NCBI GenBank assembly: GCA_945787235.1
Contig: CALZGT010000001.1
Span: 1-33,481 of the forward strand
Direction: 5' to 3'
DNA from: an uncultured Prevotellaceae bacterium
Lineage (GTDB): Bacteria; Bacteroidota; Bacteroidia; Bacteroidales; Bacteroidaceae
DNA: 33,481 bases
Shown here: positions 2,443-29,337 of the stretch, piece by piece
Layout: every line of letters starts with the position of its first letter
Numbering within the stretch: the stretch's first letter is position 1
Program-made: the position numbers and the translations under genes
Notes under the pieces: model-generated
Told to the model about the DNA's origin: nothing
Database searches by the model: none
The model's input: the letters and a program-made list of their open reading frames with translations, nothing else

Positions 2443-2582
2443 CCAGAGAGGCTGGGGTGGCTAGGGATTTTTAGTTGTTTTAGTTTTTCTAGTTGTTCTA
2501 GTTAAACTAGTTTTTCTAGTTTTTCTAGCTATTCTAGTTAAACTAGTTCTTCTAGTTTTTCTAGTTCTCCAAGCCTCTCTGG
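2443..2582. repeat. 9-bp-periodic CTAG-core tandem array (about 12 units) bracketed by an 11-bp perfect inverted repeat, in the susC-susD spacer
   Basis: CTAG starts at 2461, 2489, 2498, 2507, 2516, 2525, 2534, 2543, 2552 and 2561, with degenerate TTAG at 2471 and 2480. A 36-bp higher-order duplication covers 2498-2533 and 2534-2569 (32/36 identical). Inverted repeat ccagagaggct (2443-2453) pairs with agcctctctgg (2572-2582). Confidence 0.9.
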
Positions 2583-2589
2583 TTTTTGA

Positions 2590-5500: not shown

Positions 5501-6003
5501 TCAGTCTCCACGGTGATGCTGCTGGACTGGTCTATCTGCTTGCCGCTGCGGCTGGTGATGGTGGTGCCATCGGTGTAGTAGCCGCGCAACTGGGCACTGA
5601 TGAGGCTTGCGTCCTGGCCTGTCTTGCCCTTGATGGCTAACTGCAGGGGCTGGTAGTCGGGGGCATAGACATAGAGGCTTGTCGTGAAGGTAGGTACGGA
5701 GAGCTTGTAGCTACCGTCCTCCTCGGTCAGACAAGACCAGCGTTCACCGCCCAAGGCCTGTACGCGTACACCGCCCATGGGGTCGCCGGTGGCATTGTCG
5801 GTGATGCGACCGCTCACCTCCATCATCTCATATTTCTTTTCTTCCTTCGCTTTCTGTGCCTTGCGCTTGTCATAGGCGACGCCACTGTTCTCCGTGTTGT
5901 CGTCCTGAGCCATGGCGGGCAGCACGCCTACGCTGGAAAGCATAGCCATGCACAGACCATACTGGAAGGTCTTGTGCAGGAGTCTTTTTGTTGTATCTTT
6001 CAT
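2590..6003 (-). CDS. SusC/RagA-family TonB-dependent outer-membrane transporter (1137 aa)
   Basis: ATG at 6001-6003. Signal peptide ends in PAMAQDD. Carboxypeptidase-regulatory-like N-domain (VSGRITDNATGDPMGGVRVQA...EDGSYKL). Plug motifs TIRGVNSINANAQPLIVLDGNII and NATALYGAKGANGVIIIKTKRG. SusC Ca-binding-like motif GDVRFVDQNGDGVIDDND. No STN domain. Confidence 0.93.
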   Translation of the reverse strand: MKDTTKRLLHKTFQYGLCMAMLSSVGVLPAMAQDDNTENSGVAYDKRKAQKAKEEKKYEMMEVSGRITDNATGDPMGGVRVQALGGERWSCLTEEDGSYKLSVPTFTTSLYVYAPDYQPLQLAIKGKTGQDASLISAQLRGYYTDGTTITSRSGKQIDQSSSITVETEIENHLAGDVRSTSRSGMLGQGSYLTIRGVNSINANAQPLIVLDGNIIDPEYERTSLHEGFYNNILSGLDPENVESVEVLKNATALYGAKGANGVIIIKTKRGRSMATKINVRIFGGMEFVPKKLDVMNGNQYRTYLGELASTVKDFREQNWSNTDNVNTAFLNDNPNYYYNVFHNNTDWQKDMYHNTFVQNYKINVEGGDEIGMYSLSLGYTKGDGTQKGNDYSRLNLRFNTDIKITDKITTALDVAYNQTAYNVLDNGWSENYDMQNIGSTNVLGLISAPMLSPYAYYMDENNNNQLSLSNEYAGKYASKSSTTWIQNPFKFPKYMGINEALRNPYWIVRNGEGKNKNYAELTQININVAPKYQITKQFSIQDRFNYQLNRNNEKYFLPINGTTLYELTDLGNITSVLKSQFTKETTVNNDLTLEWKNKYGAHHIDVMGGWRYNNYSYSYSYIRGYNNENDKLPNISKNMQFVNYGGTKDNWIDMTYYLDATYNYANRYFAQFTLSSEASSKFGDNTKDGLHIGGVSWGIFPSLQLGWVLSNEKWFKTNKNVNYLKLTAGVDQSGNDDLDYYAARTYWESQRVTENTVGLYLKNIENSTIQWETTTKYNVALEGSFLNNRLHAGLDLFWHKTDNMLTIKDLSYISGMSQYWTNEGAMTNRGVEANLNGIIINKKDWKWEVGATLGHYKNEVTKMPAANQITLTDASGNVTGRLNGYVSSVYGDKNILTAVGYAAGSFYGWQTNGVLSTDAEASTAGAQGYLKYPTGLAENPYVNFQAGDVRFVDQNGDGVIDDNDKVVIGNPNPDLYGNIYTSLSWKNLRLDVNFKYSLGNDIYNYQRSILEGGNTTYNQTTAMTNRWTYEGQRTSIPKVCYLDSDDWRNNERMSDRWIEDGSYLKLKNVRLTYTVPFSNSWLQGLKVWAEGNNLLTLTKYLGTDPEMSARNSTLYQGIDNGLVPRGRSFNIGLSINL

Positions 6004-12225: not shown

Positions 12226-12249
12226 ATTTGTTGTTTTTATGGTTTTGTT

Positions 12250-12351
12250 CTAGTGGGGCTAGGGTAACTCGTGAATGACGTTAGTTACGTTACTATCGTT
12301 AATGATGTCCTAACGTTCTTAGCGTTCTTATCGTTAATCTAGCCGATCTAG
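12250..12351. repeat. 9-bp-periodic array with CGTT/ACGT-core units flanked by CTAG units, in the second susC-susD spacer
   Basis: CTAG at 12250 and 12259. CGTT at 12279, 12288, 12297, 12314, 12323 and 12332. CTAG at 12339 and 12348. Spacing is 9 bp with one 1-nt phase slip. A weak flanking inverted repeat pairs ggctag (12257-12262) with ctagcc (12339-12344). Confidence 0.8.
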
Positions 12352-12362
12352 TTCTCTTTGTC

Positions 12363-23343: not shown

Positions 23344-25362
23344 TCACCCTTTATTTTTCTTTTTTCGCAGCTGTTCTGCAATACTCCAGTTCAACTGAGC
23401 CTCTTCTTCCTGTCCATTCCGTGCCAATGCGTCACCCAGCAGTTCGTAGGATCTGGCATGTTCCTGTTTCAGACTGGTGGCATGGCTAAAGTCGTTGATG
23501 GCCATCCCGAACTCGTTCATGGCCAGGTGCAATCGCCCCAGGTTGTACCATCCCTTGAAGTACGCAGGACTCATCTTTGTCACCTTCTTCAGGCATTTCT
23601 GAGCCTCGTGGTAATCCCCCTCGTCCATCAGTGTGACACCTTTTCTCGTCCATGCGTCAATGAAGGTAGGGTAGAGTTCGATGGCCTTGTCGTAGTTCTT
23701 CAGCGCAGCCTGTGCGTTGTGTGCCTCCGTGATACATACGTTACCCATTTCGTAGTACTCCCTTGCATATTTTTGCAGTTGCCTTTGTTGCGCGAGCATC
23801 TCAGCCTTGAGTGCCTTGTTCTCCTCCCTGAGCCGTCGGATGATGCCCAGTTTGTACTGCAGGAATCTGCGTGGCAACGGTTTCTCAATATCATAGCGGG
23901 CGTGGATGGCTACGAAGAAATGGTTGAGAGCCTCCGGGATGTCACCCTCGTTGAAACAGCGTATCGCCGCTTCATACTCAATATCCGCCTTGGCAGTCTG
24001 CAGGGCACGCTGCACCGCTCCCTCGTCATTGAAATGGGAAGCAAACTGTGTCACTTCCGGCCTGACGAAGACCTGCGTATGCGTAACAGGCTGGCAGAGC
24101 GTCATTCCCTCCAATGAACGGCAACGGCTCAGGGCCACGTAGGCTTGTCCCCCGGCGAAAGTCCCACTACCGAAGTCTATGGTAGCCTTCTCGAATGTCA
24201 GTCCCTGACTCTTGTGTATGGTGATGGCCCATGCCAGTCGTACGGGCAGTTGCACGTAGGTTCCCAGTGTCTCCTCCTCTATCTTCTTCTCCTCCTCGTT
24301 GTAGGTATAGCGTACGTTCTCCCATACCTCACGGCCCACCGTGTATTCTTCCCCCCTTTCGGTGATGATACCCAGTTCCTCCTTCTCCTCGTCAATCTCA
24401 GTGATGGTACCCAGCGTCCCGTTCACCCACCTCTTGTCCTGGTCATTCTTGATGAAGATGACTTGTGCTCCCACCTTCAGTTCCAGTTCCATAGGGGTTG
24501 GCATCATGCTATCGGGGAAGTCTCCCTTTACTTTGCCACGGAACACCGAAGGCTTCCCCGGCAGACGGTTCAGTTCCGACTCGTTGATGAAGTCCACGTT
24601 GTCGCGTCGGGTAGCCAACGTAATTCCCATGTTCATGGGTTCTCCCTCCTTAGGTTGCGTGTAGGCAGGTCTTGTGCCTACCCTTGTGTTCAGCAGACGC
24701 AGTTCCGTTTCCGAGATGCTGCCTGTCCTCACGTGATCCAGCGTACGGATGAAGACCGGGTCCTTCTGCCTGTAAACCTTGCTCAGTTCTATGCTGACCA
24801 ATTCCATTTCCCTGAATACGCGTGCTGAGAAGAAAAACGGGTTGGGGTAGAACCGCCTCAGTATCTCCCGTTCCTCTCCCTTCACCACGGGTTCGAGTTG
24901 GAAGACATCTCCTATCAACAACATCTGTTTTCCTCCGAATGGCATCCTGAAGTTGCCCGTATAGGTTCGCAGAATGCGGTCGATGAAGTCGATGATGTCA
25001 GCCCTCACCATGGAAATCTCGTCGATGATGATGAGCTCCAGTTCACGGAGTAGCTTGATGTGCGGCTTGCTGTACTTGAGGAAATCCTTCAGCCTTCTTC
25101 CTGCATAGCGAGTGTCGTCCGGCACCAGGGGATGAAAGGGAAGCTTGAAGAAACTATGCAGCGTCTGTCCCCCCGCGTTGATGGCTGCTATGCCCGTGGG
25201 AGCCAGCACTACATGCTTTTTCTTCGTTACGCTGCATACATAACGCAGGAACGTACTCTTTCCCGTGCCCGCCTTTCCAGTCAGAAAGAGCGAGTGATGA
25301 GTATGTGTAATGAGGTTGAGTGCCTGTTGGAACTCCGCCCCGCTGGTATCTATTTCTTGCAT
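23344..25362 (-). CDS. Pif1/RecD-family SF1B helicase fused to C-terminal TPR repeats (672 aa)
   Basis: Walker A LTGKAGTGKST. Walker B IIIDEISMV. Pif1-type region MPFGGKQMLLIGDVFQLEPV. VYRQKD. C-terminal helicase motif ITIHKSQGLTF. The last ~200 aa resemble TPR repeats (YDKAIELYPTFIDAWTRKGVTLMDEGDYHEAQKCLKKVTKMSPAYFKGWYNLGRLH...). Confidence 0.8.
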   Translation of the reverse strand: MQEIDTSGAEFQQALNLITHTHHSLFLTGKAGTGKSTFLRYVCSVTKKKHVVLAPTGIAAINAGGQTLHSFFKLPFHPLVPDDTRYAGRRLKDFLKYSKPHIKLLRELELIIIDEISMVRADIIDFIDRILRTYTGNFRMPFGGKQMLLIGDVFQLEPVVKGEEREILRRFYPNPFFFSARVFREMELVSIELSKVYRQKDPVFIRTLDHVRTGSISETELRLLNTRVGTRPAYTQPKEGEPMNMGITLATRRDNVDFINESELNRLPGKPSVFRGKVKGDFPDSMMPTPMELELKVGAQVIFIKNDQDKRWVNGTLGTITEIDEEKEELGIITERGEEYTVGREVWENVRYTYNEEEKKIEEETLGTYVQLPVRLAWAITIHKSQGLTFEKATIDFGSGTFAGGQAYVALSRCRSLEGMTLCQPVTHTQVFVRPEVTQFASHFNDEGAVQRALQTAKADIEYEAAIRCFNEGDIPEALNHFFVAIHARYDIEKPLPRRFLQYKLGIIRRLREENKALKAEMLAQQRQLQKYAREYYEMGNVCITEAHNAQAALKNYDKAIELYPTFIDAWTRKGVTLMDEGDYHEAQKCLKKVTKMSPAYFKGWYNLGRLHLAMNEFGMAINDFSHATSLKQEHARSYELLGDALARNGQEEEAQLNWSIAEQLRKKKNKG

Positions 25363-27623: not shown

Positions 27624-28586
27624 CTACTTTGGTTGGCTCATCTCCTTGTCGATGTATGACATGATGCCCTGAAGGTCATCGGGGTGAAACCAGTGAATGT
27701 CCGGGTCTTTGGCGAACCATGTCATCTGTTTCTTGGCATATACGCGTGTATTCTTCTTTATCCTTTCAAAGGCTTCTTCCAACGTGGTTATCTTTCCCTT
27801 TATCCTCAGAGTCCTCCGTTCCTCTTCTGGTTTGTCCTTGTGGTCAAGGTACTCGAAGATTTCCTTGTAGCCTACCGTATTGAGGGCGTTGAGGTGACGA
27901 TGCTGAAAGTGGCGCATGGCCTCTTCCAGTAGCCCCTCCTCCCTCATCCTATCGACCCGTTGGTTGATACGTGCGAAGAGCTCTTCCCGAGAGCGTTGCA
28001 GTCCAACCTTGATGATGTGGAAAGGGCGTTCCTTGAGGTTCTGCGTGCGGAAGGAAGAGTACGTCCTTCCCGAGGTGTGACAGACCTCCAGGGCATGTAC
28101 CACGCGCCGTGTGTTGTGCCTGTCAACCTGCTCGTAATAGGCAGGGTCGAGTCTTTTCAGTTCTGCCAGCAGACTTTCCAGCCCCTCTTTCTTCAACCGT
28201 TCCTTCATCCATTGACGTGTAGCGTCTCCAATGGTAGGAATATCGTCGATGCCCTTGCACACCGCATCAATGTACATCATGCTGCCTCCCGAGAGGATGA
28301 CGGTGTCCAGTCCCTTTTCCTCGAAGAGTTTCGTCAGGCACTTCATCGCTTCCTCCTCGTAACGTGCTGCGCTATAATAATCATCCAGTGCCAGAGTTCC
28401 CACGAAGTGGTGCTCTGCTCTGGCCAACTGTGCTGAGGTGGGTGCTGCGGTACCTATCTTGAGGTCACGGAACAATTGACGGCTGTCACAATTAAGGATG
28501 GGACAGCCGTAGTACTCGGCAAGCAGCAAACTCAATTCCGTTTTGCCGATACCTGTGGGGCCAAGGAGAACGAGAAGAGTTTTCAA
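27624..28586 (-). CDS. miaA: tRNA dimethylallyltransferase
   Basis: P-loop [13 protein letters not shown] at the extreme N-terminus and IPPT-family similarity throughout. The start codon is TTG (caa at 28584-28586), immediately preceded by an in-frame TAA, so no upstream ATG is available. Confidence 0.88.
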
Positions 28587-28616
28587 TTAACAATGAATAA
28601 TTAACAATTAATAATG

Positions 28617-28792
28617 GTTGTGCGGAAAAGCTAGAATAACTAGTATAGCTAGGTCAGCTAGATTAGCTAGATTAACTAGATTAACTAGATAAACTAGTAG
28701 AACTAGAATAACTAGAATAACTAGACTGACTAGACTGACTAGACTGACTAGCTTGGCTAGCTTAACTGGATAACTAGCTTAACTAGCACAAC
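28617..28792. repeat. 9-bp-periodic CTAG-core tandem array (18 CTAG units plus 1 degenerate) bracketed by a 7-bp inverted repeat, upstream of miaA
   Basis: CTAG occurs every 9 bp without a phase break from 28631 to 28757 (15 sites). Then CTGG at 28766 and CTAG at 28774 and 28783. ctagactga is repeated perfectly 3 times (28721-28747). ctagattaa occurs twice and ctagaataa three times. Inverted repeat gttgtgc (28617-28623) pairs with gcacaac (28786-28792). Confidence 0.92.
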
Positions 28793-28800
28793 TTGCACTG

Positions 28801-29337
28801 TCAATTCTCAATGATATCATACCCTTCGGAGTCAAACTCTTCCTCCTCAAAACCCTCGTCCCCGTAGAATGATTCATCCAGTTCAGTGGTTGTTGTCTGG
28901 GTTGTTGCGTTCTCGGGCTCTTCCGCTTCCAGTGTCTGTGCGGGAGGTACTCCGGCGCGCCGTTTCACTACAGGTTTTTCCTGTCGTGTGCCAAAAGAGG
29001 TCTCTGTAAGTTCCAGGAGGAAGATGCGTCGGTCTTCTGGGTCAAAGCGATATGCCAGTCGTTGTCCCTCATCCTCGAGGAAATCTCCAAGCATAGTGTC
29101 CTCCATGAGATAGATATCCTCATCGGAATGTGATGCTTCCTCTTCCTGCAGGAAAATGCGGTGTTCGGGTCTCCAGTCCTCATCGCAGATGTAGAAGCGA
29201 TGCTTGTCACCCTCTTTGTAGTGACATGCCTGGAGGATAAGCCTGTGCAAATCCAGGAAGGTGGCATTCGCATCAATGAGAATTTCCAGTGCGAAATCCT
29301 CCACCTCTTCCGATGCCAATGTGATTTTTAGATTCAT
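28801..29337 (-). CDS. Small acidic protein, probably pRiA4b ORF-3-like / MM3350-like fold (178 aa)
   Basis: ATG at 29335-29337. The N-terminal ~110 aa (MNLKITLASEEVEDFALEILIDANATFLDLHRLILQACHYKEGDKHRFYICDEDW...) resemble Bacteroidales proteins annotated as the pRiA4b ORF-3 / IS1096 passenger TnpR family. This rests on recall only. The C-terminal tail is acidic and low complexity. Confidence 0.5.
   Translation of the reverse strand: MNLKITLASEEVEDFALEILIDANATFLDLHRLILQACHYKEGDKHRFYICDEDWRPEHRIFLQEEEASHSDEDIYLMEDTMLGDFLEDEGQRLAYRFDPEDRRIFLLELTETSFGTRQEKPVVKRRAGVPPAQTLEAEEPENATTQTTTTELDESFYGDEGFEEEEFDSEGYDIIEN

Follow-up and report, generated by a model that had tools for sequence, protein, structure and literature searches.

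The 33,481-bp stretch of contig CALZGT010000001.1 from an uncultured Prevotellaceae bacterium (hereafter the window) contains, between a gene coding for a PRiA4_ORF3-like protein and miaA, an array of the palindrome CTAG repeated every 9 bp with five variable bases between successive copies. This array, one of three in the window (array 3), belongs to a large family specific to CTAG and to a period of 9 bp, found overwhelmingly in gut and rumen Bacteroidales and also in gut members of the Planctomycetes-Verrucomicrobia-Chlamydiae (PVC) group. The intergenic gap, 214 bp from the stop codon of the PRiA4_ORF3-like gene (28801-28803) to the TTG start codon of miaA (28586-28584), contains a core of 15 CTAG sites in exact 9-bp register, starting at 28631, 28640 and so on to 28757. 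Beyond the core, an 8-bp unit, CTGGATAA (28766-28773), is followed by CTAGCTTAA at 28774 and CTAGCACAA at 28783, the last being overlapped by a decayed unit, CACAACTTG (minus-sense CAAGTTGTG), at 28787-28795. Several units are identical to their neighbours: CTAGACTGA is present three times in tandem (28721-28747), and CTAGATTAA (28667, 28676) and CTAGAATAA (28703, 28712) form doublets. For 28631-28786, Tandem Repeats Finder reports a period of 9 and 17.4 copies. Among 31 mismatches to the column consensus, 30 fall in the five spacer columns and 1 in the CTAG columns (binomial P = 3e-7). An earlier interpretation made from the letters alone (the sequence-only reading) had described the 15 sites at exact spacing, the triple and doubled units and the 214-bp gap before a TTG-started miaA, all of which are borne out; its total of 18 CTAGs has to be corrected to 17 for 28587-28800, and 18 units are obtained only when one reading CTGG is included.

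Array 3 also lies within a 7-nt inverted repeat, previously taken as a bracket. Both arms exist (GTTGTGC at 28617-28623 and GCACAAC at 28786-28792), the right arm in mRNA sense being carried by the leader (28587-28630), but they do not delimit an element. Inverted repeats of at least 7 nt flank 7.8% of 128 arrays of the family versus 6.2% of controls, and flank-to-flank duplex energies equal those of controls; flanking inverted repeats were rejected as part of the element on both tests. The left arm belongs to a decayed unit (CAAGTTGTG); allele L123 has a proper CTAG unit there, CTAGCTGTG, and L122 a different sequence again. Thus, this chance-level repeat is neither conserved nor separate from the array. 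Just upstream of the miaA start codon, and overlapping it, is an AT-rich 7/14-bp tandem repeat (CAATTAA / AATTAACAATGAAT, 28584-28615) conserved in every allele. Public gene callers switch between 320-aa (TTG) and 240-aa forms of MiaA at this locus.

The PRiA4_ORF3-like protein is identical in at least 22 pig-gut contigs. Ten contigs encoding it, from pig-gut metagenome assemblies, were read, and the spacer is readable in eight, with lengths of 143, 161, 178, 187, 187, 214, 215, and 215 bp (10-18 units), 214 bp being the window itself. The alleles differ by interior gains, losses and substitutions of units, with little or no difference in their flanks. Most of them have the same unit at the PRiA4-proximal end, and on the miaA side the last ~4 units are largely shared by the longer alleles. 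CTAG is rarely mutated, and then to CCAG or CTGG; spacers differ from one another by 1-2 substitutions. The slippage hotspot, or variable-number tandem repeat (VNTR), suspected from the sequence is therefore a genuine CTAG-phased array of variable length. Array 1 is also polymorphic, with 9 units versus 12 in another strain with an identical SusD-like protein. A look-up with the second SusD-like protein (SusD2) found no alleles of array 2.

The closest named relatives of MiaA are encoded by metagenome-assembled genomes of "Bacteroidaceae bacterium" (72% identity). The comparison with related genomes, proposed in the sequence-only reading, revealed not only variable copy number but also absence of the array: in five syntenic relatives with 83-68% MiaA identity the spacer contains no CTAG (Table 1), indicating that array 3 is lineage-specific and is neither a conserved control element of miaA/PBP1A nor a conserved operator of the lpx-miaA-PBP1A cluster. 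The Bacteroidetes -7 box, TAnnTTTG, is absent from 28560-28800, and no terminator-like site (GC hairpin plus T run) is present in the array 3 spacer. Since it lies within a co-directional cluster and lacks a promoter box or terminator, array 3 is most likely transcribed as an intercistronic spacer. The Rfam scan produced only sub-threshold matches (E of at least 2.1), giving no assignment to a structured RNA. The spacers of the relatives, the missing promoter box and terminator, and the lack of neighbour-family enrichment at 56 arrays (see below) give no support to the proposed dedicated insulation or tuning of miaA and PBP1A, and the practical message at this locus is negative: array 3 is no conserved regulator of either gene.

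Table 1. Array 3, its flanks, the other arrays of the window, and the corresponding spacers of relatives.
Feature	Position or spacer length	Strand	Remarks
miaA (IPP transferase), downstream cistron of array 3	27624..28586	-	320 aa, TTG start
AATTGA including the miaA TTG start (28586-28584)	28583..28588	-	one copy of the 6-bp direct repeat flanking the spacer
AT-rich leader, array 3 to miaA start	28587..28630	-	conserved in every allele; 7/14-bp CAATTAA repeat
Array 3 core, 15x (CTAG + 5 variable bases)	28631..28765	.	10 distinct units; exact 9-bp register
Decaying edge beside the upstream gene	28766..28795	.	CTGGATAA, CTAGCTTAA, CTAGCACAA
PRiA4_ORF3-like gene, upstream cistron of array 3	28801..29337	-	178 aa
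AATTGA including the TGA stop of the PRiA4_ORF3-like gene	28801..28806	-	second copy of the 6-bp direct repeat
Array 1, between SusC-like stop (2590) and SusD-like start (2419)	2471..2587	-	9 perfect units and decayed TTAG/CAAG/CTGG units
Array 2, between the second SusC-like and SusD-like genes	12250..12352	-	short and decayed; two CTAG-N5-CTAG pairs, inverted
PRiA4-miaA spacer, relative at 83% MiaA identity	-4 bp		TGA stop overlaps TTG start, AATTGAAAAC; no CTAG
PRiA4-miaA spacer, relative at 75% MiaA identity	112 bp		no CTAG
PRiA4-miaA spacer, relative at 72% MiaA identity	11 bp		no CTAG
PRiA4-miaA spacer, relative at 71% MiaA identity	17 bp		no CTAG
PRiA4-miaA spacer, relative at 68% MiaA identity	47 bp		no CTAG

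The window contains 33 CTAGs, 31 of which fall within three 9-bp-phased intergenic clusters (arrays 1, 2, and 3), making chance untenable as an explanation. Outside the clusters 2 CTAGs are observed, where 47 would be expected on the basis of CTA/TAG/TA counts and 125 on that of base composition. Among other tetramers, TTAA (ratio 0.22), GATC (0.24), CGCG (0.37), and CCGG (0.42) are depleted, and GTAC (1.74) and CATG (1.59) are enriched; this pattern, together with the depletion of CTAG, is compatible with restriction avoidance. Arrays 1 and 3 have no spacers in common, and no termini are shared among the three arrays. The A-rich form of the unit is on the minus (mRNA) strand in array 1 and on the plus strand in array 3.

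A 14-nt inverted repeat (CCAGAGAGGCTGGG / CCAAGCCTCTCTGG, 93%, at 2443-2456 and 2569-2582) surrounds array 1 and closes a predicted RNA hairpin of -45 kcal/mol; it is not a feature of the family. The spacer with array 2 (12226-12362) carries the CTAG-N5-CTAG pairs at both ends in inverted orientation (12250-12268 versus 12333-12351, 74% complementary), enclosing 9-bp CGTT[CA]TTA repeats and a perfect 7-nt inverted repeat, ACGTTAG/CTAACGT; the arrangement resembles an old array that has decayed. All large genes of the window are on the minus strand, and the gene set is of the Bacteroidota type. It comprises two SusC/SusD pairs, fasciclin-domain proteins, glycoside hydrolases, a Pif1-TPR helicase, PBP1A, miaA, the PRiA4_ORF3-like gene, lpxA, an lpxC-fabZ fusion, lpxD, and pyrF. 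The Pif1-like helicase with its C-terminal TPR fusion (23344-25362) is encoded downstream of PBP1A, at the same position as in two relatives (L253 and L254).

Extent and specificity of the (CTAG+N5)n family

One genome per species in GTDB was scanned with a query of six CTAGs at 9-bp spacing. At least 120 loci were obtained; taxon proportions are those of this sample, and the counts by taxon given here are among the matches listed. By record title, 96 loci belong to Bacteroidota, including Prevotella, Prevotellaceae, "Bacteroidaceae", Muribaculaceae, Paludibacteraceae, Porphyromonadaceae, Alloprevotella, and Sodaliphilus. These are mostly from rumen, horse, pig, and human gut, and four come from cultured Prevotella-group isolates; cultured carriers include Prevotella sp. 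tc2-28, P. merdae, Prevotellamassilia timonensis, and P. conceptionensis. Gut and rumen PVC bacteria (Victivallales, Lentisphaeria, Kiritimatiellae, and one Verrucomicrobia) account for 9 loci, 4 are unlabelled, and 11 are from other phyla. The latter are mostly near-perfect repeats with 1-5 distinct units (most with 1-3), indicating ordinary VNTRs that happen to contain CTAG. Arrays of viral contigs, among the matches listed by the same scan, are near-perfect as well, with a mean spacer Hamming distance of 0.69 versus 1.99 of 5 in the genome loci. In the genome loci this distance is at least 2.5 in 29% of arrays and at least 3 in 14%, saturation being 3.45.

The specificity for tetramer and period was assessed in 898 kb of loci by counting arrays with four or more units, at least three different ones among them. 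At period 9, CTAG forms 139 such arrays; the numbers fall to 4 and 1 at periods 8 and 10, respectively, and to zero at 6, 7, 11, and 12. No other tetramer in the 898 kb comes near this count, save k-mers overlapping CTAG, and other palindromes form no arrays. A CTAG neighbour at +/-9 is found for 1210 of the 1741 CTAGs, and the in-phase CTAG is absent at ~29 of 1054 unit steps. Where an anchor is missing, a one-step variant takes its place, most commonly CTGG or CCAG, and the edges of arrays carry CTGG, CCAG, TTAG, and CTAA. In 0.9 Mb of related loci, one extra array is found for roughly every 30 kb, compared with three in the 33-kb window.

Arrays of the same genome share exact spacers in 22.7% of cases versus 5.2% for different genomes, a composition-matched control also giving 5.2% (p = 1e-14), and identical two-unit blocks are present in 4 of 37 same-genome pairs versus 41 of 7344 different-genome pairs. 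The arrays thus form genome-specific sub-families, which implies that they are exchanged or spread among loci. The searchable full-text literature yielded no account of CTAG 9-mer arrays, although it leaves out most subscription journals, and the family is apparently undescribed so far.

Some loci show additional repeat structures. In a Paludibacteraceae starch-binding cluster (L099, 918-6260), similar arrays are located in three successive intergenic regions, each ending with CTAGAAATC followed by a common module containing ATCTAYCNCCAG and GCCGTTTTTGAAG; arrays and flanks were evidently duplicated jointly. At L009 (1361-3123), der (engA) lies between two arrays with the same units in opposite orientation, era being located upstream, so that inverted arrays bracket housekeeping GTPase genes. 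An array of Porphyromonas sp. UMGS166 (L010, 2586-2721), situated between divergent genes, is enclosed by the arms of a perfect 30-nt inverted repeat with a duplex energy of -46 kcal/mol, a different context that is possibly invertible or mobile. Related Bacteroidales intergenic DNA (the L017 spacer, L046, and L253 at 5855-5945) is rich in other short tandem repeats, beside or in place of CTAG arrays: GTGGAAC, CTACTCAA, ACTGATA, GGTGAAAA, and a 30-bp repeat between the PBP1A and Pif1-like genes.

Placement, polarity and coding copies of the arrays

According to crude, open reading frame (ORF)-based gene calls, 61 arrays are located between co-directional, 16 between convergent and 7 between divergent genes. 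Typically, the array follows a stop codon after 0-30 nt and is itself followed by an A-rich leader of 10-40 nt and ATG; several spacers hold nothing more. The first CTAG itself provides the stop codon in 10 of the 61 co-directional arrays, 31 of the 61 have an array TAG in the reading frame of the upstream stop (p = 0.014), and TAG stops are more frequent beside arrays (36% versus 20%, p = 0.0025). A role as backup stop codons was rejected, as two of the three frames stay open in a typical unit and one TAA would be more effective; the in-frame excess fits better with seeding of arrays at TAG stops. Units proximal to the start codon are often decayed to CTAA.

In the mRNA-strand unit, A is found at position 5 in 62% and at positions 6-8 in ~48%, and T at position 9 in 46%. 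The A-rich sense is on the mRNA strand in 44 of 61 arrays (p = 7e-4), whereas array-free spacers of the same loci have A and T fractions of 0.30 and 0.27. Array 3 is in the T-sense, minority orientation. Its opposite orientation relative to array 1, pointed out in the sequence-only reading, is real, but is no evidence for orientation independence of the family. Unit polarity is uniform within arrays (84% versus 64% at random), and shuffling of 9-bp units by restriction cutting and religation was rejected for this reason.

No gene family is enriched beside arrays, according to Pfam analysis of 56 upstream and 56 downstream proteins. The matches include enolase, tRNA synthetases, riboflavin and Fe-S enzymes, era/der, and glycoside hydrolases. 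Gene-specific regulation was therefore rejected, the SusC-SusD junction, found twice in the window, not being general. An association with mobile genes was rejected as well: the ORFs between paired arrays are era, der, sufE, GH26, and similar genes, and no transposase genes are found near arrays in the window or in the neighbourhoods examined. Three further leads, namely base pairing between AGAAA and the 3' tail of the 16S rRNA, rut sites for Rho, and sites for RbpB, were discarded because the spacer positions they need are not conserved; the RbpB paper contains no CUAG motif.

About 20 arrays are in frame within long ORFs, with Pfam domains on both sides or spanning them. The families concerned include ABC-F ATPases, GH106, DUF6298, BT_1020-like hydrolases, GluQRS, and GH95. 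In a GluQRS clade with at least 79% identity, the ancestral loop GKILDEMEKNTPAA is replaced by an S/R/L-rich run of tripeptides of widely varying length, the listed homologues having 285-355 residues. At the DNA level, in four orthologues, nearly every tripeptide contains NCT-AGN: the four-fold degenerate T is fixed, while the residue varies among S, T, P, and A. The constraint thus bears on the four nucleotides of CTAG rather than on the protein, and a nucleic-acid-level constraint, whether on DNA or RNA, is real. The coding copies argue strongly that arrays arise and persist by a nucleic-acid-level process independent of intercistronic function. GluQRS homologues (L100, L261-L263) contain a second hypervariable insert at alignment columns ~280-345, with SPFHPFTF, LPFHLFNL and PKGG..GV motifs and very unequal length between close homologues; it is possibly another type of repeat.

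Proposed propagation of the arrays and alternative explanations

Array 3 may be viewed, with about an even chance of this being correct, as a recent, hypervariable member, restricted to its lineage, of a dispersed family of self-propagating repeat DNA, which changes in 9-bp steps by CTAG-dependent duplication. Units would be gained and lost 9 bp at a time, and duplication would require intact CTAGs. Two routes can be envisaged. The palindrome could allow any unit to pair with any other, in register, during replication slippage. Alternatively, a CTAG-specific enzyme could nick the steps between T and A, which lie exactly 9 bp apart (AG-N5-CT). Since AG-N5-CT is a symmetric 9-mer, a 9-bp-staggered cut at both CTAG dyads would duplicate one unit and regenerate CTAG. 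Units without CTAG would cease multiplying, so that anchors would stay near-perfect while the 5-base spacer drifts; by a birth-death argument, reasoned rather than computed, ~3-5% of defective units would be compatible with ~40% spacer divergence. Arrays would tend to start at or just past stop codons and would survive only where an insertion of 9n bp is harmless, i.e., in intercistronic spacers and protein surface loops. At the miaA locus, array 3 would have separated two genes that overlap or are 11-47 bp apart in most relatives (112 bp in one), adding 143-234 nt of transcribed spacer, depending on the strain. Both the CTAG dependence of the duplication step and the lack of a function for the organism are parts of this scheme that we infer.

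Several observations weigh against self-propagation of this kind. Despite their abundance in the window, GTAC and CATG do not give rise to arrays; self-complementarity alone cannot explain arrays made of CTAG only, and a CTAG-specific factor is therefore needed. For near-saturated spacers with at least six perfect CTAGs (the 14% at a mean Hamming distance of at least 3), purifying selection on CTAG is an easier explanation than turnover. The A-richness of the mRNA strand and the uniform polarity within arrays point to some transcript-level selection. The copy-number differences are derived from short-read assemblies, three scaffolds of which have N gaps inside the array (L124, L125, L130), and some of the variation could be assembly error.

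The main alternative, which we regard as possible but doubtful, is that the arrays are functional landing pads. A multimeric host factor would read CTAG in DNA, or CUAG in operon mRNA, every 9 nt, much as TRAP or HutP do on (G/U)AG repeats and MetJ or TrpR on tandem operators, and tune the stability, processing or translation of the downstream cistron, with copy number as heritable tuning. An exact 9-nt phase, an invariant 4-mer and free spacers are typical of cooperative binding arrays; CTAGs remain perfect over saturated spacers, orientation is biased relative to transcription, and spacers form genome-specific "dialects". The stereotyped layout from stop codon through array and leader to ATG also agrees with this explanation, as does the decay of start-proximal units to CTAA, as if the ribosome-binding window excluded CUAG. 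On the other hand, no gene family is enriched beside arrays, 28% of them, including array 3, have the opposite polarity, and no Rfam match was obtained. Array 3 is missing in close relatives and highly variable among strains, and an intercistronic function makes no sense for arrays within coding sequences, where CTAG is equally conserved. A broader and more speculative proposal, to which we give rather little credence, is a dedicated CTAG/CUAG-specific machine that makes and/or reads nonamer arrays every 9 nt, genome-wide in gut Bacteroidales and gut PVC bacteria, providing heritable and fast-varying control of intercistronic expression and protein loop length. Candidates are a nickase, a transposase-like enzyme cutting between T and A at steps 9 bp apart, and a multimeric RNA- or DNA-binding protein. 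A link to the strong CTAG avoidance of these genomes, or to TAG-recoding phages infecting them, is possible.

A role of the transcribed array as RNA, similar to that of repetitive extragenic palindromic (REP) sequences and bacterial interspersed mosaic elements (BIME), is improbable. The array would fold via in-register CUAG:CUAG helices and either shield the upstream cistron from 3' exonucleases or uncouple the translation of the cistrons. Array RNA is more stable than dinucleotide shuffles (z = -4.2; -0.31 versus -0.16 kcal/mol per nt). The predicted folds of the window spacers reach -59.3 (array 3) and -45.2 kcal/mol (array 1), flanking stems closing both hairpins, and the predominance of co-directional and convergent over divergent placement resembles that of REPs. 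However, the excess over CTAG-preserving shuffles is weak (z -0.4 to -0.8), indicating that almost all of the stability comes from in-register CUAG:CUAG pairing; selection for spacer complementarity, as in a true long hairpin, was rejected on this basis. Helices of 4 bp between 5x5 loops are marginal in reality, closing stems are no class feature, stronger palindromes are never used, and arrays in coding loops would be left unexplained.

It is quite improbable that the whole 208-212-bp spacer is a miniature inverted-repeat transposable element (MITE) inserted between the PRiA4-like gene and miaA with AATTGA as the target-site duplication. AATTGA is indeed present at both ends of the window spacer, the relative at 83% MiaA identity has a single uninterrupted junction, AATTGAAAAC, and same-genome arrays share spacers and two-unit blocks. 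Yet the TTGA stop/start overlap, which is needed for function, makes up 4 of the 6 repeated bases. The terminal inverted repeats and flank energies are at control level, the three window arrays have no common termini, no transposase genes are located nearby, and coding arrays grow in place across a clade. The CTAG-free spacer of the relative at 75% identity is weakly similar to the right flank of the window spacer (z 2.4-2.7), so that a deletion in the 83% relative is as possible as an insertion here.

A plain neutral VNTR, in which CTAG conservation is an accident of recent amplification, would account for adjacent identical units (CTAGACTGA three times), copy-number polymorphism and decayed edges, but is very improbable and already contradicted by the array 3 mismatch statistics (diverged spacers, conserved CTAG) and by the specificity count, the anchored pattern recurring at well over a hundred independent loci with only CTAG at period 9, whereas units are nearly identical in the ordinary CTAG-containing VNTRs of other phyla and viral contigs.

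Provided that the family is as widespread as the scan implies, a considerable part of the intercistronic DNA in gut bacteria of the Prevotella type would follow one rule, a fixed 4-bp palindrome with a 9-bp period and free spacers, which implies a CTAG-specific process. Strain-variable array length in operons and enzymes would then be a source of variation in expression and protein loops, and the arrays could serve as a strain-typing marker and be a recurrent cause of assembly gaps.

Comparison with known repeat systems

The arrays share with bacterial VNTRs, or minisatellites, tandem head-to-tail units, copy-number differences between close strains and decayed edges, as well as a unit length divisible by three that keeps coding copies in frame. 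Unlike in VNTRs, the units are not similar over their whole length, nearly all mismatches in array 3 being in the spacer: 4 of 9 positions are kept, the rest are nearly free, and the same anchor and period recur at many loci in many genera.

The short tandemly repeated repetitive (STRR) heptamers of heterocystous cyanobacteria are short tandem units of unknown function dispersed in the intergenic DNA of one bacterial group, and the arrays resemble them in this respect. STRR units are, however, 7-mers conserved over the whole unit, have no palindromic anchor and belong to another phylum. REP/BIME of enterobacteria consist of ~35-bp units with a defined stem-loop, mobilised by REP-associated tyrosine transposases (RAYT). 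Like them, the arrays are abundant, transcribed, extragenic, self-complementary and strain-variable, follow genes and are rare between divergent genes. They differ in having a 4-bp palindrome per 9 bp and no defined stem; the fold comes from CTAG alone, without a closing stem common to the class, and no transposase was seen in the neighbourhoods examined.

CRISPR loci also alternate a palindromic repeat with variable spacers of constant length. Their dimensions are 23-55 plus 21-72 bp, compared with 4 plus 5 bp here, no cas-like Pfam match is present in the window, and the array spacers are related by point mutation rather than acquired. HIP1 (GCGATCGC) of cyanobacteria is a short palindrome at high genome-wide frequency, for which a link to a methyltransferase or to repair has been proposed. 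Both HIP1 and the arrays keep a short palindrome in coding and non-coding DNA against neutral expectation, but HIP1 is dispersed and not tandem, while CTAG is strongly depleted outside the arrays.

The RNA sites of TRAP and HutP contain (G/U)AG triplets, and the trp operator has CTAG-containing half-sites 8 bp apart. The arrays resemble the sites of TRAP, HutP, MetJ, and TrpR in their short conserved cores, fixed spacing and free spacers. Those sites are fixed in number, linked to specific regulated genes and conserved in relatives, whereas the arrays are generic, variable and lineage-specific. Among the known tandem and dispersed repeats of bacteria, the novelty of the family lies in its unusual rule, which combines a fixed palindromic 4-mer and a fixed 9-bp period with free spacers.

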